Below are positions 45,020 to 64,000 of a DNA stretch of 64,000 nt, in pieces. Source of the stretch: an uncultured bacterium. GTDB taxonomy: Bacteria; Hydrothermota; UBA3072. The notes beneath the pieces were generated by a model that saw only the letters and a list, made by a program, of their open reading frames with translations, was not told the DNA's origin and did not search any database. The stretch covers positions 74,805-138,804 of the forward strand of contig CAZGHN010000006.1 in the NCBI GenBank assembly GCA_964525555.1, read 5' to 3'. Made by a program: the position numbers and the translations under genes. How positions within the stretch are numbered: position 1 is the stretch's first letter; the number at the start of each line of letters is the position of its first letter.

Positions 45020-45043
45020 TGGTTTATTTTGCCACGAAGACAA

Positions 45044-45411: not shown

Positions 45412-46716
45412 TTAGTCAGATACCTTGGGTTCCCATAATTTTAGTTCGCTTATACATGCGTCATTATATTTGGAACCCTTGTATATATCTTTAATAATGA
45501 ATTTGACGGATTTAGTAACATGTGGTTCGATTTTAATCTTTTGTAAATCCATAGTATCTTTTAAATCTAGATTCATTGTTGAGCCATCCGAGAATGATAT
45601 CTCAAGGGTTTTTATTCTATTATTGGCATTAAATATGGCTTTTGATTTAGAGTAACCTGAAATGATATCAATTCTTTCGATATTATATTCCTCATCGAAA
45701 TCCAATTGTATCCATTCGCCTATACCGTCTCCTTCCGAACCTTCAACCCAGGCTGTATTATCATCATTATCAAATATATTGTCTATATCATATAAAAACT
45801 TGTTATTTTTATCGGTAAGAGTAGAAGAGCAGGTCACTTTCATATGATGTCTTTGAATTAACCCTTCGTTTTTCTTTAATTCCGCGATAATATTGTCTAA
45901 GTCTAACTCATAACAATCGACAAGTAGCCCGTTATCTCTGTTTTTCTCAAGGAAATCTATGACTTCCGGATTACAGATTTCTTCTATGTGAGAAAGGAAA
46001 TCATCAATTGGATAATAAACATCAGGTTTATTTATACTTTCTTCGAACGAATTAAGAATAAAATTAAGATTTTTCTCGTACTCATGATTGACCAGACAAT
46101 AAGCTTCCGCAATCGCTAATTCCTCTCTTATTCCCTTTGGCTTGAAATTCTTTAAAACTTCTACAATCCTTTTATCTCGTAATTCTGCCAATCTCCATAA
46201 AATTGGTAATGTAGATATATTTTTACTTTTAAACGGACCATCGAATGGACTCTTATTATCTTTATTGTGTAATTCATTATAGAGTTCTTGCATAAGATAG
46301 TCAAAAACTTTTGGTTTATTTATCTTCTCTAAAATAGATAAAGCAATATATAATGAATATTCACCTTTTTCGATATATCTCTTAACTTTACTATATAAAT
46401 TTGATTTTCTATCTGATGATATTTCTTTTAGAATCGACTCAAATAAATGTAATAATTTCTTTTCTTCAATATCGTCAGATAGCGAAAAGCTTTCAATTAT
46501 ACTTTTACTGGCTTCATCTGTACCAATCTCAATTAAATTTTCATAAGCTTGTTTTATTTTTTGATGATCTTCTTTGGTATTGATGCCTTCTGCAAGAATA
46601 TTTCTAATAATATTAGCGTGACGTTCAACATCTAAATCTTGTGATTTGTCTCCATTTGCTGATAATTGATAGCAAGAGCTAACAAAACATAGAATTATAA
46701 GGATACACGTTTTCAT
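45412..46716 (-). CDS. lipoprotein with helical N-terminal region and C-terminal galactose-binding/discoidin-like domain
   Basis: Lipobox LCFVSSC; C-terminal NTAWVEGSEGDGIGEWIQLDF...ISELKLW. Confidence 0.45.
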   Translation of the reverse strand: MKTCILIILCFVSSCYQLSANGDKSQDLDVERHANIIRNILAEGINTKEDHQKIKQAYENLIEIGTDEASKSIIESFSLSDDIEEKKLLHLFESILKEISSDRKSNLYSKVKRYIEKGEYSLYIALSILEKINKPKVFDYLMQELYNELHNKDNKSPFDGPFKSKNISTLPILWRLAELRDKRIVEVLKNFKPKGIREELAIAEAYCLVNHEYEKNLNFILNSFEESINKPDVYYPIDDFLSHIEEICNPEVIDFLEKNRDNGLLVDCYELDLDNIIAELKKNEGLIQRHHMKVTCSSTLTDKNNKFLYDIDNIFDNDDNTAWVEGSEGDGIGEWIQLDFDEEYNIERIDIISGYSKSKAIFNANNRIKTLEISFSDGSTMNLDLKDTMDLQKIKIEPHVTKSVKFIIKDIYKGSKYNDACISELKLWEPKVSD

Positions 46717-46784
46717 ATTCTATACTCCTTTTTTAGATTTAACGCTCAGTGTTAAGTAATTCATGGTTCTAAGATTTATCAGCG

Positions 46785-47738
46785 TTATTCCCAATAATAG
46801 TTGGGTCCGGCAAGGTCGGTTTTCGGATTAAACACCCGGGTGTTATCTGTTGGTGAAAGCAAAGATTGTAATGTATTATCTTCGGTAAACATTATATAAA
46901 TGTTATCTTCTTTAGGGTCGAAATCTTTGAAGTTCGCGTAAAAAGCTTTTTCATCTTCTCTGCTCATGAAAAGTACGCATCCTGCACTTTTTTCACCAAA
47001 GTGAAATAAACATAAAGTTTTATAATTTTTACCCGAGGCTGATTGAGTCACTGTTAATGAAATTTTAGTCCCTATTTCATTTGGCCACAAGTCTTTTCCA
47101 CCACGATCAGAAGCGTCAAGATTAGCTATATAAAGTGGAACTCCCTTGTTGGTTTTTGTAAATGTATTACTTTCCTTAAACACACCAGCATATTTAACAT
47201 TTGATGGCACAGATAAATATGGCTTGCCATTTTCTGCTGATGTATTTGCTTGACTATTTACCCTAAATTGAGAATTTAAGATAAATTTGTCATCCGCTGT
47301 CAGCCTTAGATTATCACAGTAACCTCCCGAATACCCAACATAATTCCTTACTACATTAATATTATAATCGGTTAAGCCACCAAGGTCAATTCGATTAATC
47401 GGATCATTTGTCGCGTACACATAAGGATTTAGACTTTGTGGGCCGGTTAAAAATAAATCTTGAGGCATAAGCGTATGCGGATCAGGGGTTATAAATCTCC
47501 CGGTATTACTGCTATAATACCTTGCTCCAAAGTAATTGAATCCAGACTTATCTTTTTCCTTTCCGGTGAAATCCCTATTGTCTTCAAGTGTTCCTGAAGT
47601 GCTTAAATTTATACCAAAACTCTCATATGACTTCTCCTTCACAATATCATCCTCATCTGTAATCATAATGGGGGAACCCAGTCTGTCAAGATGATAGAAA
47701 TACAATTTCCCATCCTTTTCTTTGGCAAGGAGGCGGTT
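46785..47738 (-). CDS. orphan rhs C-terminal cassette (start-less): core end (YFYHLDRLGSP...DPINRIDLGGL) plus unique toxin tip
   Basis: Frame opens directly after a stop; homology to rhs begins at NRLLAKEKDGKLYFYHLDRLGSP; no ATG or RBS. Confidence 0.6.
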   Translation of the reverse strand, partial: NRLLAKEKDGKLYFYHLDRLGSPIMITDEDDIVKEKSYESFGINLSTSGTLEDNRDFTGKEKDKSGFNYFGARYYSSNTGRFITPDPHTLMPQDLFLTGPQSLNPYVYATNDPINRIDLGGLTDYNINVVRNYVGYSGGYCDNLRLTADDKFILNSQFRVNSQANTSAENGKPYLSVPSNVKYAGVFKESNTFTKTNKGVPLYIANLDASDRGGKDLWPNEIGTKISLTVTQSASGKNYKTLCLFHFGEKSAGCVLFMSREDEKAFYANFKDFDPKEDNIYIMFTEDNTLQSLLSPTDNTRVFNPKTDLAGPNYYWE

Positions 47739-47755
47739 TTAAAAGAATTTAATAT

Positions 47756-48781
47756 TTATTTTTTAAGGTTAACCAGAAAAACTTTGTCCTTTGAATCTTT
47801 ATCACGCATTAAAAAAACTATCTTCAAACCATCAGGAGACCATTTAGCTGCATGGTTTTTCCTGTATTCTTCTTTGAACCCAAATATTTTCACTGATTTT
47901 CCGGTCTCTAAAGAATATATAAAGACTCCTTCGATAGTTGAATATACCAATTTTTTATCATCCGGAGAAAATGCGCCTGGTGCGAAACCTGGTAGGTATC
48001 GAAAATTATCATCGTTAAAACTAAATAACTTAATATATTTTAAAGTATTAACATTGTAAATCCAATATTCATAAACCGAATTCTCATTTTCAGAAGGCCG
48101 ATAACTAGCATAAAATAAGAACATATTTCCGTCCGAGGACCATACTGGATCCGGATAAGCGGATTTTAAGTCTGTAAGACCGGGAATAACTACTTTTTTG
48201 AATTTCTGCTCTTCCAGATTAAAAAACCACATTCTTTCATCGTAATTTGGTTCTCCCGTCAATGAATCCCTTGGATTACATAAGTCTATAACAATAAAAA
48301 GATCGGTCCGAGTTCCAAAATTTATAGCGCTATTATCGCTGGCATACCTTTGGAATCCCTCAGGGAGACTAACGCTTTTCTTCTCTCCTGACGGATATTT
48401 TATTCTAAGTGTATCTTTATATATCCTGACCACGTATTCCCTGCAGGGACTTACAGCCCAATCATATCCAAACTTCTTAATCGTGTCTACATCAAAGACT
48501 TCTTTTATATTCTCCTTGTTCTTACAATTATCATAGTATAATCTTATAAACTCCATTTCATTAATGCGTAAAGAATCTTTAGTTTCCAGGTCAAGAAGAT
48601 AATATTCGTTATAAGGTTTATATATGGTTTTACCAGAACCTCTATATAGGATTTTATTGGATTCAGTCCACTCATATAGGTATTCTATCTTGTCCGCTTC
48701 AAATATTGCCTGAGCTTTGTAATAGTCAGAGCTACACATACTTATGGTTAGACAGATTAAATTAAGATTAAATAGAAACAT
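47756..48781 (-). CDS. PD40/TolB-like beta-propeller lipoprotein (candidate immunity protein)
   Basis: Start at ATG 48781 with RBS GGAGGA; lipobox LTISMC; repeated SPDG/SSDG motifs. Confidence 0.55.
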   Translation of the reverse strand: MFLFNLNLICLTISMCSSDYYKAQAIFEADKIEYLYEWTESNKILYRGSGKTIYKPYNEYYLLDLETKDSLRINEMEFIRLYYDNCKNKENIKEVFDVDTIKKFGYDWAVSPCREYVVRIYKDTLRIKYPSGEKKSVSLPEGFQRYASDNSAINFGTRTDLFIVIDLCNPRDSLTGEPNYDERMWFFNLEEQKFKKVVIPGLTDLKSAYPDPVWSSDGNMFLFYASYRPSENENSVYEYWIYNVNTLKYIKLFSFNDDNFRYLPGFAPGAFSPDDKKLVYSTIEGVFIYSLETGKSVKIFGFKEEYRKNHAAKWSPDGLKIVFLMRDKDSKDKVFLVNLKK

Positions 48782-48862
48782 CTTGTTTCTCCTCCAATTT
48801 TTCATTTTTTTATATTAAAGATAATACATTTCTATACTTATTCATACTTACCTTAACTCATT

Positions 48863-50383
48863 TCACAATGGAGAAATATAAGGTTCAGGCTCGAAAGACT
48901 CAAAAATCGCTTGCGGTGGATCTTTCATTACTTCGCAATCCTCAGGCGTCTCTTCTGAATCATTCTTTTCGAGTTCATCAATTTGACCTGTTAAATCTTT
49001 CATATCATCATTTGATAACCTTATACACCCATTGGTAGCCCTCAGTTCTTCTGTAGCCTCGGAGAGTTTTCCTCCATGGATTCTAAATAAATCACGATTA
49101 GACTTCTTTGCTTCGCCTGATTTTGGGTCAAGAAGTATTTTTCCGTTAGGACCAAAAGAGCTTAATTTTTTCCCTGTCAATTTCGATGTACTTTGTCTTC
49201 CTGTTATGTCGTAAGTTCCGTAAGGGGTATCTCCATTTTCAGCCATCCTGTCTCTATGATTTCCTCTCCCTAAGGCATCCCAGCTTTTAACAACAATTCC
49301 CTGTCTATTGCGTAAGTATAACCTACCAGTCGTACTACGGTCGTCAGAAAAAGCAACATCTATAGACCATAAACCATTCGGGTCTACACGCGTAAGTGGC
49401 GCATTTAAACAATACACATAAGGATTCAGTTCCTGTGGGTTAGCTAACTTCAATCCTCCAGGCATCAATGTATGCGGATCGGGGGTCAGGAATCTTCCGA
49501 TACTACTACTATAATACCTCGCACCAAAGTAATTGAATCCAGACTTATCTTTTTCTTTACCGGTGAAATCCCGATTGTCTTCGTTAACACCCGTACTACT
49601 AAGGGCAGTACCGAAACTCTCATAAGATTTTTCCTTCACAATATCATCCTCATCTGTAATCATAATGGGGGAACCCAGTCTGTCAAGATGATAATAATAG
49701 ATGTGTCCGTCTTCATCTTTGGCAAGGAGACGGTTTCCCGCATAGAAATACTTCTTCGGAGGAGTTCGCTCTGAACCCGATTCGCATCGGGCGTTATCCA
49801 CCCATAATTTTCCGCCGCCTAACATTCTTGCTATATGAAACTTAAAATTAGCCGCGCCTGAAGGGATATCTCCAGGATTTATCGTTACTGAAATCTTCAT
49901 CCAGTTATTTGTGCCTGTTATTATAGCCGATGATTTCCCTCCGAAACTCTGGGACCAATCCGCACTCCAGAAATCGACCATTACTTTCACTCCTCCCGAT
50001 AGATTTTGAGTCTTTACCCAGACGGAAGCGGTAAAGGGTTTTTTTACCTCTGATAATGAATTATGCTGTATCATGAGTTCCGTTGTGCCCATAGATTGAA
50101 AGAATGGGGAGTATAGGCAATATTTACCTTCCTGGGATTGCTGGGAGGTCACAGACCAATTAAAATCACCTTCCCATTGTCCCCAGCCCGTCTTATCTCC
50201 TGTTTCAAATCCGGGATTTTCAAGAATATTAGGTGAATCATCATCTTCTAAGATGAGGTTGCCCGCGTTATCATGGAAATAATTAATTATTTCAGTATTC
50301 GAAGTAGGACAGTCGGTGATCTCCTGACGAATTCTCGGATATCCTTTATAGGAATATTTATAATTACACAAATATGTCCCGGA
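48863..50383 (-). CDS. orphan rhs C-terminal cassette (start-less): CBM4/9-like domain, rhs core end, L,D-transpeptidase-fold toxin tip
   Basis: Homology to full-length rhs from YKGYPRIRQEIT onward; YYYHLDRLGSP...DPNGL; tip contains HGG-x17-TNGCIRL (YkuD catalytic signature); only a TTG at 50371, no RBS. Confidence 0.6.
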   Translation of the reverse strand, partial: SGTYLCNYKYSYKGYPRIRQEITDCPTSNTEIINYFHDNAGNLILEDDDSPNILENPGFETGDKTGWGQWEGDFNWSVTSQQSQEGKYCLYSPFFQSMGTTELMIQHNSLSEVKKPFTASVWVKTQNLSGGVKVMVDFWSADWSQSFGGKSSAIITGTNNWMKISVTINPGDIPSGAANFKFHIARMLGGGKLWVDNARCESGSERTPPKKYFYAGNRLLAKDEDGHIYYYHLDRLGSPIMITDEDDIVKEKSYESFGTALSSTGVNEDNRDFTGKEKDKSGFNYFGARYYSSSIGRFLTPDPHTLMPGGLKLANPQELNPYVYCLNAPLTRVDPNGLWSIDVAFSDDRSTTGRLYLRNRQGIVVKSWDALGRGNHRDRMAENGDTPYGTYDITGRQSTSKLTGKKLSSFGPNGKILLDPKSGEAKKSNRDLFRIHGGKLSEATEELRATNGCIRLSNDDMKDLTGQIDELEKNDSEETPEDCEVMKDPPQAIFESFEPEPYISPL

Positions 50384-50405
50384 CTAAAATGTGTAGTTAA
50401 GTGAT

Positions 50406-50726
50406 CTACTCGATTTCTATCTCAATCCCGCCTATTTTTCGGGAAAGGAAATTGTAGAAAAGTCCTCCTAATAATCCAAATAAAAATCCACCAGTACCAT
50501 ACATAATTGGAAATAAAATGAAGCTTACTCTTCTATATATCCAGGATAGTATTGTCCCAGACAGCATAGGAGAATATCTTCCATATTCTGTTCCTATATA
50601 TATGCCTATTATTACGCCTGGAATAAGATAAAGAAAAGCGCAAATCTTCGCTACTGAAAGTACTCCTACTTTTTTTATCTCTACTACCTTTTTACCCTGT
50701 AATTCTTCTTCTTGTAAAGCTATCAT
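50406..50726 (-). CDS. small two-TM membrane protein (candidate immunity protein)
   Basis: 106 aa with two hydrophobic helices; lies between toxin cassettes. Confidence 0.4.
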   Translation of the reverse strand: MIALQEEELQGKKVVEIKKVGVLSVAKICAFLYLIPGVIIGIYIGTEYGRYSPMLSGTILSWIYRRVSFILFPIMYGTGGFLFGLLGGLFYNFLSRKIGGIEIEIE

Positions 50727-50742
50727 TATTTATTATCCCCTG

Positions 50743-51834
50743 TTATTTTTGAGGATACCAGGAGATTTCTCCGCAAGAATAAGCGTGAATCCCTATAATT
50801 TTTCTCTTATTTGTCCCGTTGTTATTCATAACCCAGATTTCAGTATATTTATCATCCTCTATCTCTTCTACAATATATGCGATAAATTTATCATCAGGTG
50901 ATACCATGGGAGAATACTCATATATATCTGGCGAATTTGTCAGGTTCTTTTGGTTTTTACCATCACTATCCATCACAAAAATTTCACTTGGGAAATCTTT
51001 GGTTTCCCTTTTTATACTCCAGTCTATACATCTGCTAAAATAGATTTTCTTGCCGTCATTAGACCAACAAGGATCAAAATCAGGAAGATTATTATTTGTC
51101 AGTCTTTTATATTTTCCGTTCTCTATATTTATTACAAAGATCTCTGAGATAGAAGATTCAAAGGCAGTTCTACTTAGAGAGTCCGGAAGGGTGTAAGGGA
51201 GCCTTGTTTGTTCCGCTTCTAATTGTGTACTAAAAGCAATTTCTTTTTCATCCGGAGAAAGAGCAAAATCACCATAAAAGTTAGCTAATTCAGGACTTAT
51301 TTTCATGGCATTAAAAGAGATTTTGGACTGGACAGTGTCATGAACTATAAACTCATATCCGTCAAGATTAAATATAATCTTTCCTGAAGAAGTAGGTGCT
51401 ATAGAACAAATAATTCCATCTAGGTCTTTATATTTCTCTCTCTCGCTTTTTGGAAGGTTTTCCCAGCATCTAATTATTCTTCTTGTTCCCGTTGTATTCA
51501 TAATATAAATATCTGGATCATCTTGCCAACCCACAATACCATCGTCATATAAACCGGTCTCAAACCTTGTCCCAAGAAATAAAATTCCCGAGCCATCTGG
51601 TAACCAGACAGGATCTTCCAGAGGGTATCTTGTATTAGTTAACTGATATAGAGTATGAGGCGAATCTACTTTAACTGCAAATATCTGGGGATCTTTAATC
51701 GGATTACTGTTTGTATCCGCGGTAAAGAGTATAGTATTTGTGAAATCCACATTAGCCGGCAATTTCTCTACTTCAGCGTTACATCCGGTTAAGATTACAA
51801 TGAAAAGAAAGAAGACATTTATTTTTTTAATCAT
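50743..51834 (-). CDS. PD40/TolB-like beta-propeller lipoprotein (candidate immunity protein)
   Basis: Start at ATG 51834 with RBS GAGGAG, 11 nt after the stop of cassette 51845..53086; lipobox ILTGC; repeated LPDG/SNDG/SPDD motifs. Confidence 0.55.
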   Translation of the reverse strand: MIKKINVFFLFIVILTGCNAEVEKLPANVDFTNTILFTADTNSNPIKDPQIFAVKVDSPHTLYQLTNTRYPLEDPVWLPDGSGILFLGTRFETGLYDDGIVGWQDDPDIYIMNTTGTRRIIRCWENLPKSEREKYKDLDGIICSIAPTSSGKIIFNLDGYEFIVHDTVQSKISFNAMKISPELANFYGDFALSPDEKEIAFSTQLEAEQTRLPYTLPDSLSRTAFESSISEIFVINIENGKYKRLTNNNLPDFDPCWSNDGKKIYFSRCIDWSIKRETKDFPSEIFVMDSDGKNQKNLTNSPDIYEYSPMVSPDDKFIAYIVEEIEDDKYTEIWVMNNNGTNKRKIIGIHAYSCGEISWYPQK

Positions 51835-51844
51835 TATGCTCCTC

Positions 51845-53086
51845 TTACCAGTTTTGAATATCCTGAGGTATGACTTGAATATTTCCGTTATCATAAGACC
51901 CAATTGGACTATAACCACTAACTGCGTTATAATGTTGAAGGAAATCATTATCATATTTGCCTCCACCTCTTTTAATAAGACTCTTCGGATCTTTTCCTCG
52001 ATGTACTTCCTTTACAAATTTTTTCATTCTTGCAAGTTCTATCTCTGCTACCTCTGCTCCGTTCTTCTGGTCTTTATAAACTTTACTAAGATCTAGCCGG
52101 TCGTAACCCTCATAACCTGGCACTATTGCTTCCTCATGTTTGTGAGCAAACATTCCCATGCAGATTTTATCTATATCCCCTTCGCGGATTGTATTCATAG
52201 TACTAAAAAGGGTAACAATTCCCCAGAAAGCAGTAGTTGGAACGCCGGTAAATGCCGCCCCAGCCCAAAACCAATCTTCACCTGTTACAATTTCTGCGGA
52301 GGGGTAAGGTATCTCTTCAGGAGCTGTGGTTAAAGCTCCTGGGAAACGTCTCCTAAGGGTTAAAAATACACTACCCATTGGTACTATCGAACCAGCTGTT
52401 TCAGCCGTCCCTCGACCCAAAGTTACCCTATATACCATATTATCTGTAGTAGTGCGGAATAGGCCTTTCTTATCCACATAATACAACGGATCATTTGTGC
52501 AATAAACATACGGATTAAATGTTTGCGGGTCCGAAAGTTCCAAATTCCCCGGCATAAGCGTATGCGGATCAGGGGATATAAATCTTCCGGTATTACTACT
52601 ATAATACCTCGCACCAAAGTAATTGAATCCCGACTTATCTTTCTCTTTACCAGTAAACTCCCTATTATCCTCATGAGTCCCACTTGATGAGACCACCGCT
52701 CCAAACCCTTCATACGTTTTATCTTTCACAATATCATCCTCATCTGTAATCATAATGGGGGAACCGAGTCTGTCAAGATGATAATAATAGAGATGACCGT
52801 CTTCTTCTTTGGCAAGGAGACGGTTTCCCGCATAGAAATACTTCTTCGGAGGAGTTCGCTCTGAACCCGATTCGCATCGGGCGTTATCCACCCATAATTT
52901 TCCTGAACCGGATAGTTTTATAAGCATTACCTTAAGGGCTTCTACTTCCCATTCGGGCATATTTCCTTCATCTACCGTTAACAATATCTTTTGCCAGTTG
53001 TTTGTTCCTGTTATTGGATTAGATGTTATAAATTTGTTATGACCGATAGAGAGTAAGAATTGTCCAATGTCGAGATGCGACCCCAA
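51845..53086 (-). CDS. orphan rhs C-terminal cassette (start-less): partial CBM-like domain, rhs core end, unique toxin tip
   Basis: YYYHLDRLGSP...NDPLYYVDKKGL; frame opens after stop at 53087-89 (TTG only); 5' end abuts tandem repeat 53079..53151. Confidence 0.6.
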   Translation of the reverse strand: MGSHLDIGQFLLSIGHNKFITSNPITGTNNWQKILLTVDEGNMPEWEVEALKVMLIKLSGSGKLWVDNARCESGSERTPPKKYFYAGNRLLAKEEDGHLYYYHLDRLGSPIMITDEDDIVKDKTYEGFGAVVSSSGTHEDNREFTGKEKDKSGFNYFGARYYSSNTGRFISPDPHTLMPGNLELSDPQTFNPYVYCTNDPLYYVDKKGLFRTTTDNMVYRVTLGRGTAETAGSIVPMGSVFLTLRRRFPGALTTAPEEIPYPSAEIVTGEDWFWAGAAFTGVPTTAFWGIVTLFSTMNTIREGDIDKICMGMFAHKHEEAIVPGYEGYDRLDLSKVYKDQKNGAEVAEIELARMKKFVKEVHRGKDPKSLIKRGGGKYDNDFLQHYNAVSGYSPIGSYDNGNIQVIPQDIQNW

Positions 53087-53151
53087 TTACACACGACCCC
53101 AATTACACGACCCCAATTACAACCCCAATTACACACGACCCCAATTACACA
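53079..53151. repeat. tandem repeat, about five copies of a 13-16-bp unit GACCCCAATTACAC(AC)
   Basis: Direct reading of 53079-53151, ending in inverted GGGGTC. Confidence 0.8.
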
Positions 53152-55233: not shown

Positions 55234-55248
55234 TCTCTCCTTTAAATC

Positions 55249-58200
55249 TTACCACTCAATTTCTTCAAACCTATAAATCTTCCCAGAATCCCAGTAATAA
55301 GTCGCACCTAACATAGGAACATAAACACCACCTTCCGTAGTCCAACCACTTCCAAAGAAATAATCTCCTTGAACGCCAATTATAGAGCCTCCGGCTGTCT
55401 CAATAGACTTTCTGGTCAGGCATTTTGAAAGTTCGTCTTCAGTTGGCGCTCGACGCCATCGGTTCATCTTACACATAGTACCCGCTGACAAACTACCAGA
55501 TAAAGGTATTAAAGATTTTCCCAGCTGTGGGCCATGTCCAAAGTACACATTCCCATACCTATCCAACTTTAAATTTATACTATATCCAATAATAGATCCT
55601 AAATTAATAGTAAGATTAAGATAATCAGGCCATTGTCCTCTCCAAAACTCATTAACAGCTTCTTGCATCGTAGGTCCTTGATAAATACCAAGATAAAAAC
55701 CCAAATAATTGAAAAAATGATACGGATCCATACTTGATGCGGTAACGATAATAGGATCCATTAAAAATATATCATCACCTATTTGGGTCGGTTCCAATCC
55801 CCATGGGTCAAAGAAATTTACTGGATCGTTATGGCAATACACATAAGGATTAAGTGTCTGCGGACGCTCTAAATTCACAAGTAGTGGATACAAGTTAATC
55901 GGATCAGGTGTAAAAAACCTACCGATATCCGCACTGTAATACCTCGCTCCAAAATAATGGAAACCGGTCTTATCTTTTTCTTTCCCAGTGAATTCACGGT
56001 TGTCATTATATGTACCATTGGACCAGCGTAAATTCCCAAACGCCTCATATAATCTTTCTTTTACAACATTACCATCTTCATCTGTTATCATAAGCGGTGA
56101 ACCGAGACGGTCAAGATGATAAAAATGAAGGTCTCCGTCATTTTCAGTCGCAAGAAGACGGTTCCCCGCATAGATATATCTTTTGGGAGCTGTAGTCTCA
56201 CTATCGTCATCCTCGAGAATGAGATTACCCGCGATATCATAGAAGTAATTAAAAATTTCCTTAGTTCCTGCCGGATACTGTGTAATTTTCTGTCTTATTC
56301 GCTGACTCCCTTTGTAATAATAATTGTACACTCTATCGGTTTCCATTGAATTAAGCGAAACAAGATTTCCATCCACATCATAGGTAAGACTGGCATCTTC
56401 CGAGACGCTGGTAAATCCATTTATCCTGCCATTTTCATCGTATGAATAGTTAAATTCACCGTCATTCTTTAACCTGTTGGTTCCGGAATAATAAGTATAA
56501 TTAGTACTATTGACGCTTTTCCTATTTCCGACCGTATCATAGGTGAAAATGAGTGTGTAACCCGGAATATAGGGATAACGACCGTAATAAATATTTTTCT
56601 TATCCTGCGTAAGTCTTCCGAGTTTATCGTATTGGTAAGATTTTACAATATCTCCAGGCCCGTCATCATGCCTGACTTCTTGATACACCTCTCCTCGTTT
56701 ATTGTAGCAAAATTGTGCTATATAGGGGTTGGCGGAAGGAATATTCTTTATTTCCATCCAGTACATCCAATTCCTTGGTCTATATGCAAATGTATCGGTA
56801 ATTCCACCGGGGAAATTTATGCCTCTTAAGAGGCCTGCTGCTGTGGATGAAAGATTGATCGTTTTGTAATCGTTAATTTCTACCGACGAGATATTGCCAA
56901 GTTTATCATATTCATATTCGACTTTGTACTCGTCCGGGTATTCCAGTTTAGTTAATCTTCCCCACAGATCGTAGGAATATTTGAATGTCTGTTCATCTAT
57001 ATCACCAATTAATGGTATTACAAGCTTTTCCCCAAGGTTTCCGAATTTATCGTAAAAATATACTTCCCTTACATTTGGATTTTGGAAACCCGTAAGTCTT
57101 CCTTTTGGAAAATTTAATCCTGAAGGTGCAGTATAAGGTGTACCTTTTATAGTATAGTTATCGTAGAAATATTCCTCCAGTGTATCAGGGAAAAACATGT
57201 AGCTTAATGAATCGTTTGTTATCACAAGGACTGATTTAATTGAATCTAGCCAGTTTTGTGATCCATGTGCAGGATAACCAGGAATAGCGGAATCAGTATG
57301 TTGGATCGCCATCCCACAAATAGTATTCCCAATATAATCCTCGCCTGGGTAAAGAAGAAAAGAATGATCTTGTTGCCAGGTTTTATTAATTGAAGAAAAG
57401 CCTTCTTGAATGGTGAACTCGCTACCAAAAGTATCGGCCGGATTTTCGAAATACACGAATAATGAACATATTCCGAAATAATTAGGAGGGTCAAATACCC
57501 AGGTTTTTGAATTAAATCTTATCCTTATCTCTTCACCTTCATCTTGCATTACATTTGCATCCTCAATGTCCCAGTATAGCCGACCAAGTTCGCGGTGGGG
57601 ATACATCCAGCTTTTACCAGGCACATACAATAAAGTGTCTTCAACCATATAGAATAGTGTATCCGGAGCAGGATCATGTATAGCCGGATTGATTTTGGTT
57701 TTTAATCTACCAAGATTATCATAAGTATAATAGATTGAATCACCGATATTTGTTCTACGAAGCTTTAAATTCCCATCAGGATAATATTCGAATGAATCTA
57801 CGCCTCTGTCAGGACCTTCTCTACGGATTAGTTCACCTAACCAGTTATAGTTAAAATCAGTGAATTTTCCTTCTGCGCCTTCAATTTCTATTAAGTTTCC
57901 GTTTGCGTCGTAATCGTAATAAGTATGATAATCGAGAGCATCTATGACCTCTACCAAGCTGCCTGTTGCATCGTTAATTAATGTGGTATAATATCCTTTC
58001 TCATCTCTTACATCTGTTATATTCCCATTATATTCATAGGTAACAAATTCGGCTCCAGGATCTTCAGAGCTTTTGGGATATTCTATCTCGGTTACTCTTC
58101 CAAGTGCATCGAAAGTCTTTTTTACTGTGTCCGCGTTTGCTGCACTGTTAAACCGTAGTGCTGTTTCCTTATTCATACGCCCATTATTATCATAAAAATA

Positions 58201-60846
58201 TTCCTTTATTACATGCTCGCCAGGATCTCCTAATACCGAATCTTGTTTAAGCCTTCCTAACTGGTCGTAACAGTAGATTATAGTGCTTGAGTCCGAAGAA
58301 GAAGAAAAAGATTTTGCTTTTGCAATCCTGTCGAAATCGTCATATTTATATTTGTTTAAAACATCGCTGCCGATTTTATCCAGAGTAAGTCTTCCGTAAC
58401 AATCATATTCGAATTCTCTTGAAACTTCATTCTTATCAGTGTGCCCTATAAGTTGCCCATCCGAATTAAAGTCGAAGTCCTCTTTTGAGCCATCAGGATA
58501 TATTACTGTGTCAGGGAATACCTCATTAGAACAGTAATCGAATTGAGATTCCTCTCCCATGTAATCTCGCATTTTTACTAGATTCCCGCAAATGTCATAC
58601 CAGTATTCCTGTGTACGGGATTCGGAATTGTTTGTCCATTCTATTTTCTTGGTGAGGTTCCCGCGGATTTTAAAATCAGCACCAAAGTCTTCAGAATCAT
58701 GAAAACCCGGGTTAGAAATGTTGCTTAAATTAGTTTCATCATACCGAAAATAAGTTTTTCCTATTCTTTGTCCTGTAATTTTAAATTTGTGTATTGCTAT
58801 CGGAAGATTGCACAACACACGATGATGGAAATTCCAACCTCCTTCTCCACCATAGCAATCCTCACACCATTCTGCAAGCTCGATATATAGAGCATCTACT
58901 TCATGTTTAAAATGCTTTATCTCTTTCCAGCTGTCATCTAAATCCAGGTCCTCGTAAGAAATTTTTTCGTTATCAACCTTATCTAAGTCTAAGCCTGGCA
59001 TAATAGCTGTAGTAAATACAGTTAGCAAGTATGGAAAATCAAATTCTTCAATACTTTCCCATCCTATACCTGTACATTCCACATCCCCTCGATAAATGTA
59101 TTCTCTTATATTACCAAACCTATCATAACTGTTATATTCGTATAGTTCTACAATATCTCCAATACCTACCTCAAGATCAGATGGATCTTTCTGTACGGCT
59201 TTGCATTTCAATGTTGGGCGTAAATGAATTGGCGGCATAAACAAATAGAGACTATCTATTGCCCAATATAAACGCGTCAATTCTAAAGTGTCTCCTTCTT
59301 TATCAAATTTTACTACCTTGTAAGGTTTACCGTAAATAAATTTCCTTGCCTTAGGGATGACCCTTTCGGAGATTACCACCTCATCTCTACCTTCATGTTC
59401 GAAAAATCTGTAATGATCCCCATTCTCCAGATATTCATTATTAATATGCCAGTAAACTATACTATCTCCTTCGGGCATAACAACCGCGCATTTTTTATAC
59501 ATGGGATAATATCCAAATATTTGCGAATTTACCCCATGAGACCAATTATCTTTAAAATCTCCATGAGTACATTCCATTTCACCTACAGAACTCACCGCGA
59601 GTGAATCATGACCTGGATAATGATATTCATACACTAAAGTTTTGGAATCCTCAGAAAGAAAAACTTCTTTCTTTTTGATTCTGCGGTATTTGGTAGGCGC
59701 GGCGATGCCTGAGCCAGACACCGTCTCATACTCATAACTGTATTCCGCGCCGTCAGGAGTGATAAATCTGACGAGTTCCCCTGTATTATTATCATAAAAA
59801 AACTGATAAGAAGGTTTCATTTTTTGCCCTTCAAAATGAAAAGATATCGAATCCAGAAGTGCGTGTTCACGAACATACCAGTATTCAATTGCATCGTCTA
59901 AATGTTTAGCCGTATAGTAGAATTTAACCTTGTAACAACCATCGTTTATCCAATGAACTAAGCTATCAATAAGATAAAACTTATCCCAACAAGGCCTATC
60001 TGGGTAAATAGGGTCTAACATTTTAGGATAAAATTTACAGTGAGAGGTAGGAGTAATAATACTATCGGGGATTCTGCCAGCCGGAGGGCAAGGGGCCGCA
60101 TCCTGCCAGGTAAATCGCACATAATTGCCATTCCTGTCCTCCATCTCTGTTAGCATATAATCAAGTCTGCGTCTCTTCTCCGGTTCTGATGGGTACTCAG
60201 GATCGGGACCGTAATCCAGTATATTCTCGAAGGTATATTTATATTCTGGCGTTGCAACAAAAGCTCTAAGATTACTTGCGAAACCAATCCAATTTTTTTC
60301 ACCTAAAACATGCCACAACCAAGCATCAAAAACATTGAAAGTTTTTTGCACAGTGTAAAACTGCCCATTAATACACGTGAAACCCACATCGCCCGTAGCA
60401 ATATTGCCAGTTCCCGGGGATCCGGGAACAGAAAATTCTCCCGGCATTACATTCCAACCTAAACCACAGGTACCTATATCCCCAGTAACCAAAAAAGCAT
60501 CATTTAGCGCCACATTAGAATGCGAATAGCAATCACCTGGAGTGAGCTGCGTCACCGATAAGGGAGAACCTCGATAGGTTAAATATACATTATAATCTTT
60601 ATTTCCTCTCATTGGCAAACTTGTAAGTTTTATTTTGAGAGACACAGTCCCGTTTGAAACATCTATATTTTCCGCAACAGTATTAGTCGATATGGTCGTT
60701 TTGTTAAAACCTACCGAGTATGCATCAAAACCGTGTGAATACATATCCTCAGTAATTTCATCAGAGGTTTTTATTTCAAGCGAATCATAAGCGGCAAGGG
60801 GGTTAGCTACGGAACTCCCAATGTTGCCAAATAAAAATACTATCAT
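55249..60846 (-). CDS. rhs: full-length RHS/YD-repeat polymorphic toxin
   Basis: 1865 aa; many YD repeats (e.g. YEYDANGNLIEI); core end FYHLDRLGSPLMITDEDG...DPWGL followed by a ~230-aa unique C-terminal tip. Confidence 0.85.
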   Translation of the reverse strand: MIVFLFGNIGSSVANPLAAYDSLEIKTSDEITEDMYSHGFDAYSVGFNKTTISTNTVAENIDVSNGTVSLKIKLTSLPMRGNKDYNVYLTYRGSPLSVTQLTPGDCYSHSNVALNDAFLVTGDIGTCGLGWNVMPGEFSVPGSPGTGNIATGDVGFTCINGQFYTVQKTFNVFDAWLWHVLGEKNWIGFASNLRAFVATPEYKYTFENILDYGPDPEYPSEPEKRRRLDYMLTEMEDRNGNYVRFTWQDAAPCPPAGRIPDSIITPTSHCKFYPKMLDPIYPDRPCWDKFYLIDSLVHWINDGCYKVKFYYTAKHLDDAIEYWYVREHALLDSISFHFEGQKMKPSYQFFYDNNTGELVRFITPDGAEYSYEYETVSGSGIAAPTKYRRIKKKEVFLSEDSKTLVYEYHYPGHDSLAVSSVGEMECTHGDFKDNWSHGVNSQIFGYYPMYKKCAVVMPEGDSIVYWHINNEYLENGDHYRFFEHEGRDEVVISERVIPKARKFIYGKPYKVVKFDKEGDTLELTRLYWAIDSLYLFMPPIHLRPTLKCKAVQKDPSDLEVGIGDIVELYEYNSYDRFGNIREYIYRGDVECTGIGWESIEEFDFPYLLTVFTTAIMPGLDLDKVDNEKISYEDLDLDDSWKEIKHFKHEVDALYIELAEWCEDCYGGEGGWNFHHRVLCNLPIAIHKFKITGQRIGKTYFRYDETNLSNISNPGFHDSEDFGADFKIRGNLTKKIEWTNNSESRTQEYWYDICGNLVKMRDYMGEESQFDYCSNEVFPDTVIYPDGSKEDFDFNSDGQLIGHTDKNEVSREFEYDCYGRLTLDKIGSDVLNKYKYDDFDRIAKAKSFSSSSDSSTIIYCYDQLGRLKQDSVLGDPGEHVIKEYFYDNNGRMNKETALRFNSAANADTVKKTFDALGRVTEIEYPKSSEDPGAEFVTYEYNGNITDVRDEKGYYTTLINDATGSLVEVIDALDYHTYYDYDANGNLIEIEGAEGKFTDFNYNWLGELIRREGPDRGVDSFEYYPDGNLKLRRTNIGDSIYYTYDNLGRLKTKINPAIHDPAPDTLFYMVEDTLLYVPGKSWMYPHRELGRLYWDIEDANVMQDEGEEIRIRFNSKTWVFDPPNYFGICSLFVYFENPADTFGSEFTIQEGFSSINKTWQQDHSFLLYPGEDYIGNTICGMAIQHTDSAIPGYPAHGSQNWLDSIKSVLVITNDSLSYMFFPDTLEEYFYDNYTIKGTPYTAPSGLNFPKGRLTGFQNPNVREVYFYDKFGNLGEKLVIPLIGDIDEQTFKYSYDLWGRLTKLEYPDEYKVEYEYDKLGNISSVEINDYKTINLSSTAAGLLRGINFPGGITDTFAYRPRNWMYWMEIKNIPSANPYIAQFCYNKRGEVYQEVRHDDGPGDIVKSYQYDKLGRLTQDKKNIYYGRYPYIPGYTLIFTYDTVGNRKSVNSTNYTYYSGTNRLKNDGEFNYSYDENGRINGFTSVSEDASLTYDVDGNLVSLNSMETDRVYNYYYKGSQRIRQKITQYPAGTKEIFNYFYDIAGNLILEDDDSETTAPKRYIYAGNRLLATENDGDLHFYHLDRLGSPLMITDEDGNVVKERLYEAFGNLRWSNGTYNDNREFTGKEKDKTGFHYFGARYYSADIGRFFTPDPINLYPLLVNLERPQTLNPYVYCHNDPVNFFDPWGLEPTQIGDDIFLMDPIIVTASSMDPYHFFNYLGFYLGIYQGPTMQEAVNEFWRGQWPDYLNLTINLGSIIGYSINLKLDRYGNVYFGHGPQLGKSLIPLSGSLSAGTMCKMNRWRRAPTEDELSKCLTRKSIETAGGSIIGVQGDYFFGSGWTTEGGVYVPMLGATYYWDSGKIYRFEEIEW

Positions 60847-60943
60847 TAATAAATTCGTTTAATACCTCCTTACTAAATATTGTTTCCATAAAAATTAATT
60901 AACATGTTATAATTTTGATAATTTTAGTAACATTACAAAAATT

Positions 60944-60980
60944 ATTGTAGGGAAAATGAAACTTTTGTCAAGAGGTTTTT
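60944..60980 (-). promoter_or_regulatory. promoter GTGGCTAA-N9-TTGACA-N16-TACAAT for rhs
   Basis: Minus strand reading of 60980-60944. Confidence 0.45.
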
Positions 60981-60997
60981 TTAGCCACACCCACCAC

Positions 60998-61134
60998 CAA
61001 AAAACATTCACCACAGAGAACACAGAGAAAAAGAAAAAACACAGAGCACACTGAGAAAAAAACTATGTTTCGTGTTTTTAAAACCCAACCCACCTCAGTT
61101 AATTTTTCACATGTAGAACATGTAGAAATTGTAG
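60998..61134. repeat. ~137-bp interspersed element (family R2), copy upstream of rhs
   Basis: See 45044..45180. Confidence 0.8.
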
Positions 61135-61253
61135 ATACTGTGTTCTCTTTGATTATTTTACTAATTAACAAATATACTAATCAACCAATTAACAGATTCG
61201 AAGAATTTTTGAATCTAAATCAAAAGATGCAATTTTTTCTTAGGCGGTACCAA

Positions 61254-61826
61254 TTATCCTCCATGCATTTTTCTTGATTCTACAATTATTGTATCCGCGT
61301 TAATTATTATGTTTAGTCCTGTTTTTATTTTTTTAAGTTCGGCTCCCATATATTTTACATTTGGAGGATATTTGATCTGGTCGCCAAAATCAAAAATCCT
61401 CATTTTATATCCTTCTTTAGCATCACCAAATAAAACAAAATGAATTACAACTTCATCACCCGAATTAAAACAGGCAATATAATATAATTGGATTGCCCGC
61501 TGTCCTAAAACAGGCAGATATGAATCAAAAACAATCTCTTTTATACCTCCAGATTCCTCGAAGTAAACTTTTTCCATCGCATCTCTGAATTCTTCAAAAG
61601 TAAATTCTTTTAAAAGATCCGGATGAAATTGTAGAAAAACTTCTTTATAATTCTTATTGAAAAGTCCAAAAAGAACCTTGTTGGTAATCGTTACTGCCTT
61701 AAAAGTGTCGTGTTCCAGCTGGCGAACACAATGAGATAGGACAATGATGGACGAAATTAAGATTAAAATTATAAAAGAACACTTTTTCTTCATATATTTA
61801 GTATATTTAGGGTCAAATCGCGGCAT
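61254..61826 (-). CDS. secreted/lipoprotein-like hypothetical protein preceded by an rhs-core-like promoter module
   Basis: RBS AGGAGG 61835-61840; upstream 61853-61881 encodes HLDRLGHPY-stop, homologous to the rhs core segment. Confidence 0.5.
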   Translation of the reverse strand: MPRFDPKYTKYMKKKCSFIILILISSIIVLSHCVRQLEHDTFKAVTITNKVLFGLFNKNYKEVFLQFHPDLLKEFTFEEFRDAMEKVYFEESGGIKEIVFDSYLPVLGQRAIQLYYIACFNSGDEVVIHFVLFGDAKEGYKMRIFDFGDQIKYPPNVKYMGAELKKIKTGLNIIINADTIIVESRKMHGG

Positions 61827-62200
61827 TGCATTATCCTCCTTTTTTATTAATGATTTTAATAAGGGTGTCCAAGCCTGTCAAGATGGGTTGAATAAGGTTA
61901 GGTTGTTAGAAGGTTAGGTGGTTTCAAAAAAAATCCGATCCAACAGTGTTTTATAACTAGTTCCTGGTACCCGGTACCTGATATCTAAAATTGACCATAG
62001 AGATCGCAGAGATTTTTAAATGTTGGTCTGTTGATCTGTTAGTCTGTTTTTTCCCCACCTACACACTAACTTTATTTATCTTTTGACCCATGACTCAAGA
62101 CGCGGGACTCACCGACTCGGTTGAAATTGTCAAGCGTTGAGATTTACCCCCAATTATTTACGTATGTACCCTCGTCTATATGAGAAGATCGTCTCTCGTG

Positions 62201-62683
62201 TTATTTATACACTAAAATAAAAATCAAAATCTCCCAGAAAGGTACAGTTAAAATCAAAACAACGCTGGAGATCCTTAACCTTTTATTTTTTCTTTCTATT
62301 TCCTCCGTTATTTTTTCCCTTTTGCTTAACACTTCCGAAGAAAAATGATAACAAGAAATTCCACTTAAAAAAAGTGCTATGGTTAAAGGAAATATATACA
62401 TCATGAAACTTCCCGGAATATTACCGAACTCGGGGACAATATCTAATATCTCCTCAACACATATCAAAAGTATGATGTAAATAACCCCTATCGCCATAGG
62501 TATACTAACCAATTTATTGGTTATCCTTAAAAACTTTTTTACTTTTTCATTCCCTATAAAAGGAAAGAAAGGACGATATAGTTTCACAACAGCACCTACG
62601 TATTTATCTGCAAAGAAAAAGAAAGTTAAAAATAAAAGATAGAAACAGTAAATCCCTAAAGCGGCTAAGACTTTAATTGCCAT
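62201..62683 (-). CDS. four-TM membrane protein immediately after an rhs toxin tip (candidate immunity protein)
   Basis: 160 aa with several hydrophobic helices; begins 4 nt after the stop of 62687.. Confidence 0.5.
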   Translation of the reverse strand: MAIKVLAALGIYCFYLLFLTFFFFADKYVGAVVKLYRPFFPFIGNEKVKKFLRITNKLVSIPMAIGVIYIILLICVEEILDIVPEFGNIPGSFMMYIFPLTIALFLSGISCYHFSSEVLSKREKITEEIERKNKRLRISSVVLILTVPFWEILIFILVYK

Positions 62684-62686
62684 TTA

Positions 62687-64000
62687 TTATTTTCCCTCCC
62701 ATACAATAAAGGCAGAGGCGCCTAAACCACCGACAACAAAGACTCCTGACTCCACATAAAATCCACTCCACCATGGGTTAGCGGGACCCCAACCCACCTG
62801 AGTACCTAAAACAAATCCTGCTTGAACACTTATGTTCAAACCAGGAGAAGGCTCCTTATAGCCATCATTTACCATTACCATGGCACCCGGAGGTATACTT
62901 ACACTTGGAGAGATCCCAAGATAATAATATGGTTTTCCATCGTCAGTGATTATTTTTCCTCCAGTAATTATTACTACACTTACACCTAAATCTACGTAAT
63001 CAACCGAAGGATCCTCCTCAAAGTGCTTGGCAAACGTTGCCCAGTCTGGATCCTTTTTTGTATCGTCTTGACCCTTTTCATTAAAAACACCCGTCTGAGC
63101 ATTAGTACTGGTATTATCAGCAGCAACAAAAGCCCAGGAAGGGTTATCGAAATACATAATTGAACCAGACCCATACTGATTAATTATATCCTGCTGCCTT
63201 TTATAATCCCAATACGCAATGGGATCTTCTTCATAGCTTATTGGTGACTCTTGTAATCCTAATAAATCCACATATTTAAGTGGGCTATTTCTACAGTAAA
63301 TATACGGATTTAAACTCTGTGGAATTGCCAATGTAAGCCCAGCGGGCGTAAGCGTATGCGGATCAGGGATCAGGAATCTTCCGATGTCGCCGCTGTAATA
63401 TCTCGCGCCGAAGTAATGAAATCCTGTCGGGTCTTTTTCCTTTCCCGTGAATTCTCGGTTATCTTCGAGTGTACCTGAAGAAGATACTAAGTTACCAAAT
63501 GCTTCGTATTCTCTCCGTTTTACCACAATACCATTCTCATCTGTAATCATAATCGGAGAACCAAGACGGTTAAGATGATAGAAATGAAGCTCTCCGTCGA
63601 TTTCGGATGCAAGGAGACGGTTTCCAGCATAATAGTATTTCGTTTCAGGTGTTCGCTCGGTTCCCGATTCACATCTGGCGTTATCAACCCATAGTTGTCC
63701 ACTTCCTAACATTCTTGCTATATGAAATTTGAAATTAACCGCGCCGGAAGGTATATCTCCAGGATTTATCGTTACTGAAATCTTTTGCCAGTTATGTGTG
63801 CCTGTTATTATTGCCGATGATTTGCCTCCATAACTCTGAGACCAATCCTCACTCCAGAAATCGACCATTACCTTCACTCCTCCCGATAAATTCTTAGTCT
63901 TTACCCAGACGGAAGCGGTAAAGGATTTTTTTACCTTTGATAATGAAAATTGCTGTATCATGAGTTCCATTGTGCCCATCGTTTGAAAATATGGGGAGTA
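62687..64000 (-). CDS. rhs: RHS toxin C-terminal region (CBM4/9-like domain, core end, unique tip); N-terminus beyond window end
   Basis: Frame open to nt 64000 (YSPYFQTMGTMELMIQQ parallels the orphan cassettes); HFYHLNRLGSP...VDLLGL then a unique ~200-aa tip. Confidence 0.7.
   Translation of the reverse strand, partial: YSPYFQTMGTMELMIQQFSLSKVKKSFTASVWVKTKNLSGGVKVMVDFWSEDWSQSYGGKSSAIITGTHNWQKISVTINPGDIPSGAVNFKFHIARMLGSGQLWVDNARCESGTERTPETKYYYAGNRLLASEIDGELHFYHLNRLGSPIMITDENGIVVKRREYEAFGNLVSSSGTLEDNREFTGKEKDPTGFHYFGARYYSGDIGRFLIPDPHTLTPAGLTLAIPQSLNPYIYCRNSPLKYVDLLGLQESPISYEEDPIAYWDYKRQQDIINQYGSGSIMYFDNPSWAFVAADNTSTNAQTGVFNEKGQDDTKKDPDWATFAKHFEEDPSVDYVDLGVSVVIITGGKIITDDGKPYYYLGISPSVSIPPGAMVMVNDGYKEPSPGLNISVQAGFVLGTQVGWGPANPWWSGFYVESGVFVVGGLGASAFIVWEGK

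Follow-up and report, generated by a model that had tools for sequence, protein, structure and literature searches.

Loci in which a full-length rhs gene is accompanied by orphan cassettes are a textbook case of how bacteria diversify their contact-dependent weapons. The locus described here raises the question of what maintains such orphans, as spare tips for resident genes or as modules kept for reasons of their own. In this study, we analysed a 64-kb stretch of contig CAZGHN010000006.1 (the window), in which the part from 45.4 to 64 kb has five rhs frames, all of them on the minus strand. Two frames belong to the resident genes rhs1 and rhs2, and three are truncated cassettes, here called orphans 1 to 3. 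An earlier inspection of the letters (the sequence-only reading) had proposed an rhs polymorphic-toxin locus, and this was borne out: two genes are parental, three frames are tip cassettes truncated at the 5' end, and candidate immunity genes follow them; the coordinates of the complete rhs gene, the partial second one and the three cassettes were exact to the codon. With a probability of roughly 0.8, we read the region as a chromosomal Rhs locus with displaced toxin and immunity cassettes from a third rhs lineage, which are retained by selection, are not ready switch partners of the resident genes and probably encode envelope-acting toxins.

Five rhs frames share one core end and differ in their tips

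The five frames are as follows (CBM, carbohydrate-binding module; aa, amino acids):

62687..64000, minus strand: rhs1, 3' part; CBM-like insert ~63635..63997, core end 63254..63622, tip 62690..63253 (188 aa)
55249..60846, minus strand: rhs2; YD-repeat shell, core end 55795..56163, tip 55252..55794 (181 aa), without the CBM-like insert
51845..53086, minus strand: orphan 1; last ~60 aa of the CBM-like insert, core end 52460..52825, tip 51848..52459 (204 aa)
48863..50383, minus strand: orphan 2; last YD repeats, whole CBM-like insert 49754..50233, core end 49370..49735, tip 48866..49369 (168 aa)
46785..47738, minus strand: orphan 3; starts at NRLLA; core end 47373..47738, tip 46788..47372 (195 aa)

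rhs2 is a complete gene of 1865 aa with an ATG start. rhs1 stays open from 62687 up to the window edge; only its 3' end lies inside the window, its shell lies beyond, and the evidence for YD repeats concerns rhs2. The orphans are given as stop-to-stop frames. An independent Logan assembly of run SRR14802572 confirms the segment with the 3' part of rhs1 and its 160-aa and 190-aa neighbours as well as the segment with rhs2, its 91-aa neighbour and the TPR gene listed below.

RHS homology was confirmed by profile searches: TIGR03696 (Rhs_assc_core) is matched by all five frames with 64-70 bits (69.7 bits for rhs1; cutoff 32.5), and rhs2 matches Pfam RHS_repeat (E 1.3e-22) and TIGR01643 (E 1e-12). 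In a comparison with the PDB, rhs2 resembles solved Rhs, teneurin-like and TcC structures. A five-way alignment contains ~70 invariant columns from NRLLA to DxxGL, where the likeness stops; no copy departs from the first PDP motif or from the D, G and L of the closing DxxGL. Rhs toxins carry two DPxGx-type motifs, of which the second (DxxGL) holds the catalytic aspartate and is the cleavage site (PMC8636562). In Photorhabdus Rhs1 this aspartate is catalytic for C-terminal autocleavage, and its mutation abolishes cleavage (PMC8636562). By analogy with solved Rhs proteins, the large YD-repeat shells predicted for rhs1 and rhs2 of this uncultivated, low-GC bacterium would enclose a C-terminal toxin and free it by aspartyl autoproteolysis at DxxGL.

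Beyond DxxGL, pairwise comparisons revealed no significant similarity among the five tips, and thus the expectation of a shared core end with mutually unrelated tips proved correct. A common family for the tips of rhs1 and rhs2 was rejected, their BLASTP match being marginal (E 0.04). The rhs1 tip has no Pfam match and is weakly related to an orphan tip in one metagenomic relative (L006; BLASTP E 3e-5); here and below, L-numbered relatives are contigs from JGI environmental metagenomes. When a genome collection was scanned for near kin, it yielded nothing closer than distant Bacteroidales MAG fragments. Neither the rhs1 nor the rhs2 tip had matches in the PDB.

Tips are followed by candidate immunity genes

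Each of the five tips is followed by a gene within 3-68 nt. These genes and their neighbours are:

62201..62683, minus strand: 160-aa protein with four transmembrane-like segments; GGAGG Shine-Dalgarno, 3 nt past the rhs1 stop
61254..61826, minus strand: 190-aa exported or lipoprotein-like protein with homologues near Rhs tips in relatives
54958..55233, minus strand: 91-aa protein with two transmembrane-like segments, 15 nt past the rhs2 stop
53412..54755, plus strand: TPR lipoprotein gene, likely start near 53577, convergent with the rhs2 operon
50743..51834, minus strand: PD40 beta-propeller lipoprotein; lipobox LTGC, Pfam PD40 E 1.9e-16, 10 nt past the orphan-1 stop
50406..50726, minus strand: 106-aa protein with two transmembrane-like segments, last gene of the orphan-1 module
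47756..48805, minus strand: PD40 beta-propeller lipoprotein of 349 aa; lipobox ISMC, 57 nt past the orphan-2 stop
45412..46716, minus strand: 434-aa lipoprotein; lipobox VSSC, C-terminal NADase-type discoidin (F5/8 type C) domain

Only the orphan-2 tip belongs to a recognised Pfam family. Scanned alone, it reaches 38.7 bits with YkuD (cutoff 23.4) and 30.3 bits with Tlde1_dom (cutoff 30.1), and it keeps the catalytic-type H...GC motif, which reads IHGG...NGCIRL. It is therefore predicted, above curated cutoffs, to be an L,D-transpeptidase/Tlde1-like domain. A domain search of each tip, which the sequence-only reading had suggested, was thus productive for orphan 2, but it assigned no family to the other four, including the tips of orphans 1 and 3. 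The orphan-3 tip carries an invariant FH.G..S.GC motif; the idea that it is a second YkuD/Tlde1-like enzyme found no Pfam or pairwise support and was dropped.

The tips of orphans 1 and 3 recur together with their downstream genes. An orphan in L006 bears a homologue of the orphan-1 tip (75% identity), and this homologue is followed by a PD40 gene whose product is 77% identical to that of 50743..51834. Tip-3 homologues in L007-L015 have 57-76% identity, and a homologue of the 434-aa protein follows every tip-3 homologue examined, with 50-81% identity in L007-L015 and 35% in L016. The pair occurs in six other contexts, and the most distant member (P0014 in L016) stands on an unrelated Rhs core type and is again followed by a discoidin protein, of 437 aa. 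The 434-aa protein itself matches Pfam NADase_transloc (E 2e-39) and NCBIfam NF047619, its N-terminal ~290 aa being without assignment. Co-inheritance across such divergence is strong evidence that tips and partners are cognate. Sequence comparisons thus identify two pairs that are conserved in other metagenomic organisms, one formed by tip 1 and the PD40 lipoprotein 50743..51834, the other by tip 3 and the discoidin lipoprotein of 434 aa; these two lipoproteins are candidate immunity proteins for the respective tips. With tips 1 and 3 as queries, 5.8 billion proteins yielded seven matches, each of 278-413 aa and hence truncated, and an exhaustive HMMER search of 1.84 billion representatives gave only three clusters of the tip-3 family, all of 287-334 aa.

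The PD40 lipoprotein at 47756..48805 is likewise a candidate immunity protein for the Tlde1-like tip, by its position. The two PD40 proteins of the window are only distantly related to each other, and PD40 lipoproteins are also found downstream of another orphan in L027. The 106-aa protein may be a second immunity protein of the orphan-1 module or a leftover. Small membrane proteins had been predicted after both resident genes, and both were found: the 160-aa and 91-aa proteins, with four and two transmembrane-like segments and no Pfam match, are candidate immunity proteins of rhs1 and rhs2 and would protect the producer. Homologues of the 190-aa protein follow tips in L022, L025 and L027 (40% identity) and lie upstream of the L012 orphan (73%). 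This placement behind Rhs tips in relatives makes the 190-aa gene a second candidate of the rhs1 module, for an immunity or an accessory function.

The orphans are a third core-end type

In protein identity of the core end, the orphans are closer to each other (77-78%) than to rhs1 and rhs2 (63-69%), and all three share a one-codon deletion. At the DNA level, the orphans match rhs2 with 70-71% in local BLAST and 67-68% over the global core end, with a longest exact match of 13-17 bp; for rhs1 the values are 72-78%, 66-68% and 18-20 bp. We take the orphans as a third core-end type, which by these identities is not derived from rhs1 or rhs2 and has no full-length parent in the window. In the experimentally shown Salmonella switch, main gene and orphan are 95% identical over 522 bp (PMC3967940). 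Because identity between orphans and resident genes is only 66-78%, with no more than 20 bp of exact match, ready switching in the cell is unlikely. The claim that the orphans are kept for recombinational switching was therefore not upheld, and orphans alone do not imply ready switching where the homology is this far below that of the shown switch.

The CBM-like insert gives a second view of lineage. This insert, ~160 aa long, separates the last YD repeats from the core end. Orphan 2 has it whole, in rhs1 it is cut by the window edge, orphan 1 retains its last ~60 aa, and rhs2 lacks it; orphan 3 starts downstream of the insert position and gives no information. The sequence-only reading, which had the insert common to all orphans and rhs1 and missing from rhs2, thus stood for two of the three orphans, whereas the third is uninformative. 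Homologous inserts occur at the same place in full-length genes of many relatives and therefore represent a lineage trait. That two rhs lineages exchange tips, as had been inferred from the insert, was overstated: the insert does mark a lineage that excludes rhs2, but the core ends place the orphans in a third type.

Cassette exchange among relatives

Alternative junctions at the core-end block, for which population data had been recommended, were found in metagenomic relatives. L006 and L012 share 505 bp at 94% identity, a stretch that takes in a non-Rhs 5' junction plus a truncated core end and reaches as far as the PDPHT codons; past PDPHT, L006 continues into tip 1 with the PD40 gene and L012 into tip 3 with the discoidin gene. 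Between orphan 1 and L006, the synonymous divergence (dS) is 1.03 in the core end and 0.36 in the tip. Tip-specific likeness begins ~35 aa ahead of DxxGL, and therefore the exchange point is the conserved GRF..PDP block and not the cleavage site. A scan of metagenome DNA for the HLDRLGSPIMITDE block retrieved 15 more loci, which include full-length relatives of 1780-2020 aa. Among them, L027 has six orphan core ends in 14 kb, and L022 has a full-length gene and an orphan. One tip of 211 aa is 90.5% identical between the full-length L022 gene (1833 aa) and a 326-aa orphan in L027, and in both places it is followed by a homologue of the 190-aa gene of the window. To judge from these junctions, displacement and exchange of cassettes is a real evolutionary process in this clade.

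Many orphans of the relatives share a non-Rhs 5' junction, ...NKNSV.S.A.CEN | K(K/I)YEAFGN..., which enters at the same core-end codon and leads to differing tips (L007 3.., 1998.. and 2236..; L022 8805..; L027 8138.. and 10765..; protein P0006). It is apparently derived from a dispersed repeat that resembles repetitive extragenic palindromic (REP) elements. L006 and L012 carry a second junction type just before YHLDR. These shared 5' junctions suggest a propagated adaptor or a preferred insertion site. A further common segment of ~40 aa, GEGVTV(I/T)GRR..FDAYTW(W/Y)..YQFF, directly follows DPWGL in several otherwise different tips of L020, L022, L027 (3.., 5388.., 12507..) and L031. It looks like a conserved pre-toxin linker, of which the start of the rhs2 tip, DPIIVTASSMDPYHFFNY, may be a diverged version.

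Starts, selection and possible expression of the cassettes

In-frame stops lie directly upstream of the cassettes (53087, 50384 and 47739), and the Rhs sequence ahead of each orphan tip is only 122-338 aa long. Orphans 2 and 3 start ~20 nt past the preceding gene, orphan 3 at 17 nt from that gene's stop. An ATG with a Shine-Dalgarno sequence is present at none of the three 5' ends, while ~60% of window genes have one. The sequence-only reading had seen neither start codon nor ribosome-binding site. As far as ATG starts go this is correct, but TTG codons occur at or near the 5' ends (53086, 50371, 47705), and GAGGA with an in-frame GTG is found internally. The NCBI record annotates the cassettes as proteins of 413, 502 and 293 aa.

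The frames are intact in all three orphan tips and in all seven members of the tip-3 family, despite dS of up to ~0.9. The ratio of nonsynonymous to synonymous substitutions (dN/dS) is 0.42 for tip 1 and 0.17-0.57 for tip 3 in orphan-only comparisons, with bootstrap upper bounds below 1; for the immunity candidates it is 0.16-0.25 (0.25 for the PD40 protein 50743..51834). These values indicate that the orphan tips are under purifying selection. In Salmonella, orphans are expressed via internal promoters and non-ATG starts (PMC7043789). Given the constraint, the intact tip-3 frames and this precedent, the earlier view that the cassettes are silent is not supported.

A sigma-70-like site, TTGACA-16-TATGAT (11 of 12 positions), lies within the HLDRLGSPIMIT codons of all three orphans, in the longest stretch of exact nucleotide identity among them (41-62 bp). 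It is followed downstream by GAGGA and an in-frame GTG at 52729, 49639 and 47642. Internal expression of the cassettes is thus possible, by analogy with Salmonella. The site is perfect in the orphans and imperfect in rhs1 and rhs2; an orphan-specific internal promoter was nevertheless rejected, as full-length genes of L017, L019, L020 and L023 have the same hexamers.

Why are the orphans kept?

In the reading we favour, each orphan cassette would consist of the remnant of a core end, a toxin tip of its own and a tightly linked immunity gene for an exported lipoprotein. The cassettes would have arisen by displacement or acquisition through recombination in the core-end block, roughly at the GRF..PDPHT codons, and would stem from a third rhs lineage too diverged from the resident genes for ready switching. 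Two reasons for their retention seem most plausible: the orphan immunity genes may shield the cell against relatives that deploy the same toxins, and the tips may stay an exchangeable reservoir over evolutionary time. The classical alternative is that the orphans are silent spare tips and that RecA-mediated recombination in the core end equips a resident shell with a new tip, the process known from evolved Salmonella LT2. It can draw on that precedent (PMC3967940), on the ~370-bp homologous core-end block in all five copies, and on relatives in which one junction leads to different tips or one tip is borne by both a parent and an orphan. Yet with 67-71% identity to rhs2, 66-78% to rhs1 and such short exact matches, the block is far from the Salmonella condition; moreover, the convergent TPR gene separates rhs2 from the orphans, and an rhs2::orphan fusion would delete both the rhs2 immunity gene and the TPR gene. 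We regard this explanation as improbable. A further possibility is that the cassettes are toxin-immunity modules expressed on their own from an internal promoter and a non-ATG start in the core end, as in the Salmonella main/orphan rhs locus (PMC7043789). The promoter-like site with GAGGA and GTG, placed in all three orphans at their longest exact identity, the selection on the tips and the finding of tip 3 on truncated cassettes only would fit. However, the hexamers also occur in full-length relatives, conserved amino acids could explain the site, and a promoter scan of the region was not enriched (86 sites vs 73 +/- 8 in shuffles). Some orphans of relatives (L007 type) even start downstream of the promoter-like block, and exported immunity proteins would not meet a toxin made in the cytoplasm. 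Autonomous expression is thus a tentative possibility that falls clearly short of an even chance.

The tips might also be decaying relics that hitch-hike with orphan immunity genes, these alone being selected as an immunity island. This idea agrees with the stronger constraint on the immunity candidates (dN/dS 0.16-0.25) than on the tips (0.17-0.57), with the apparent lack of canonical starts and with known arrays of orphan immunity genes (PMC5361080; PMC10539506). It is rather unlikely, given that the tip frames are intact, that their dN/dS confidence intervals exclude 1, and that the catalytic-type motifs persist (H...GC in the Tlde1-like tip, DxxGL in all core ends). One may further speculate that the cassettes are self-sustaining units, in which a REP-like repeat and a truncated core end serve as a landing-pad adaptor for swaps of toxin and immunity genes without a full-length gene. 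Tip 3 and the discoidin lipoprotein would then exist only in truncated form and be selected through autonomous expression. We consider this quite doubtful.

Several points weigh against the displaced-cassette reading itself. Toxicity, immunity and expression are inferred from sequence, and for four of the five tips no family could be recognised. The Tlde1-like tip and its PD40 gene are paired by adjacency alone, and the AlphaFold2 model of tip 3 is unusable (confidence score pLDDT 36). Word-index searches with the rhs1 and rhs2 tips and the insert came back empty but also missed the queries' own proteins, which makes this absence of homologues weak. Other parts of the genome could contain a parental gene of the orphan core-end type with enough similarity for recombination. 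The putative export route is read from a short, uncharged hydrophobic N-terminus, and the genome could have type VI genes beyond the 64 kb.

Probable envelope targeting, putative export and the CBM-like insert

Every candidate immunity protein has transmembrane segments or a lipobox. Tlde1a is an effector with an L,D-transpeptidase fold that acts in the periplasm (PMC9638812). Because the immunity candidates are membrane-bound or exported and one tip is L,D-transpeptidase-like, the toxins probably act on the envelope of the target cell.

Pfam searches (E<=0.01) detected no PAAR, VgrG or SpvB domain in rhs2, and no type VI genes were found among the 39 other open reading frames (ORFs) of the window that were scanned; these encode housekeeping functions, e.g. 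topA, clpC, pyruvate:ferredoxin oxidoreductase (PFOR), thiamine synthesis and parA. The N-terminus of rhs2 aligns from residue 1 with relatives of 1780-2020 aa, and a short hydrophobic segment of the MSLLMIIFL type is present in all. This suggests Sec-type export of rhs2.

The insert had been described as CBM4/9-like, and the structural comparison leans towards this. The Pfam CBM_4_9 match falls just below its cutoff (E 2.4e-4; 21.9 bits against 25.9). The AlphaFold2 model is partial (mean pLDDT 58; 70-83 over residues 60-150); with this partial model, the best Foldseek match in the PDB is CBM4-2 (1k42; E 3e-4, template-modelling score ~0.41), followed by CBM16, 28 and 22. Plausibly, the insert forms a binding domain exposed at the surface, and it could be a target-recognition element.

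Comparison with known systems

The locus most resembles the rhs-main/rhs-CT-orphan locus of Salmonella Typhimurium LT2 (STM0291/STM0292; PMC3967940; PMC7043789). Both have a full-length rhs gene with immunity gene, then 5'-truncated cassettes with apparently no normal start, and exchange occurs at a conserved core-end block. In contrast to LT2, where main gene and orphan are directly adjacent and 95% identical over 522 bp, the window has three third-lineage orphans with 66-78% identity and exact matches of at most 20 bp, and a convergent gene stands between them and rhs2. The LT2 gene is type VI-linked, whereas no type VI genes or PAAR were found here and the N-terminus is signal-peptide-like. 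Tandem displaced toxin/immunity modules downstream of a parental gene are also known from the orphan rhs-CT/rhsI and cdiA-CT/cdiI arrays (Poole et al., 2011; PMC3150448); unlike these, the present locus belongs to an uncultivated environmental host, and cassettes of relatives often have an apparently REP-derived non-Rhs 5' junction.

With the type VI effectors Tlde1/Tldi1 (PMC9638812), the orphan-2 tip shares the YkuD/Tlde1_dom domain, the H...GC motif and an exported partner that fits periplasmic action. It differs from them as an Rhs C-terminal tip on a truncated cassette, with a 349-aa PD40 lipoprotein as candidate partner and no type VI context found. The large YD shell, the Rhs core end and the lack of a PAAR/VgrG module are reminiscent of YD-repeat toxins that are Sec-dependent or independent of type VI secretion (WapA-type and bacterial teneurin-like proteins; PDB 9pt5/9ifo); rhs2 matches teneurin-like chains with E 1e-11 to 2e-12, a resemblance that is no more than a lead. 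For the resident genes, Tse5 of Pseudomonas aeruginosa (PMC10684867), a pore-forming Rhs toxin, offers a pure analogy: the rhs1 and rhs2 tips are also glycine-rich and followed by small multi-pass membrane proteins, an arrangement expected for membrane-acting toxins. In contrast, the tips have no detectable similarity to Tse5-CT, and matches between rhs2 and Tse5 in the PDB are confined to the shell.

Thus, the architecture is of a known type, and several of the toxins and antidotes are new. The locus is unusual in the apparent absence of a type VI context, in the CBM-like insert, in immunity candidates that are large and exported, and in toxin families so far seen on truncated cassettes only. 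The locus extends the main-plus-orphan pattern to an uncultivated environmental lineage without type VI context. It offers, as candidate pairs, two family-less tips with large exported partners (a PD40 lipoprotein and a 434-aa discoidin lipoprotein), as well as a Tlde1-like tip on an Rhs scaffold and a carbohydrate-binding-like domain inserted in the shell. The purifying selection on the tips sharpens the question of what maintains orphan toxins.

Repeats, mobile elements and neighbouring genes

Three repeat features accompany the array (MITE, miniature inverted-repeat transposable element):

60966..61171, no strand assigned: REP/MITE-like repeat just upstream of rhs2, with 14-nt inverted arms
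45014..45219, no strand assigned: second copy, downstream of the last array gene, 83.7% identical to 60966..61171
53078..53151, no strand assigned: GTAATTGGGGTC(GTGT) x5 tandem, which abuts the orphan-1 frame and supplies its first codons

The REP/MITE-like repeat is a dispersed intergenic element of ~200 bp with sub-repeats CTCTGTG and CTACATGT. The two copies listed bracket the region from rhs2 through the last orphan gene, and short-read Logan contigs break inside the repeat. The element occurs again at 42269..42407 and 36801..36879 of the window and, in L007, at 6854..6913, 10201..10256 and 13050..13099. A 209-bp direct repeat was considered as an island boundary or attachment (att) site and rejected, since it is this dispersed repeat (also at 42269, 36801 and in relatives).

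The GTAATTGGGGTC motif has six matches in the window (0.26 expected), of which the sixth (45335..45346) lies after the last array gene, and it also heads the REP-like element; none was found in the first 15 relative loci checked. At 45335..45370, ahead of the 45014..45219 repeat, this sixth match is joined by two degenerate copies (TAATTGG motif). Upstream of orphan 1, the segment 53181..53290 contains a promoter-like TTGACA-16-TATTTT, a 24-bp direct repeat (53181..53228) and a strong Shine-Dalgarno-like AAGGAGGGG without a start codon after it. Together they may represent an operator or what is left of a gene start.

On several independent contigs, rhs arrays adjoin an IS200-like Y1 transposase of ~315 aa, usually fused to a DnaA C-terminal helix-turn-helix and thus like the REP-associated tyrosine transposases (RAYT): L006 104..1054, L007 4771..5718, L008 2558..3505, L009 2586..3533 and L021 6286..7311. 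In the speculative landing-pad reading, such enzymes might help to build or move the arrays. None was present among the scanned ORFs of the window, and Rfam and tRNA scans of the window gave no matches.

The TPR gene, which stands between rhs2 and the orphan block, has a homologue (35% identity, E 8e-74) in the same convergent place after a full-length rhs gene in L020, and L007 too has a TPR gene in a matching position. In L020, the gene after the full-length rhs tip (2804..4162) has a 452-aa product that contains an Rce1-like CAAX protease (Abi-type) domain, a family often tied to bacteriocin self-immunity. At the other end of rhs2 (60846..60875), an ACG takes the place at which relatives start with M(S/N)LL; AAGGAGG lies 6 nt upstream and TAA directly before, and the first ATG of rhs2 is four codons past this ACG, 18 nt from the Shine-Dalgarno sequence. 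The ancestral start codon may thus be mutated, which could lower rhs2 expression. Elsewhere in the window, 22855..25059 encodes a 734-aa NHL-repeat beta-propeller protein that ends in a FlgD-Ig-like domain, which is typical of C-terminal sorting domains in the FCB group and candidate phyla.

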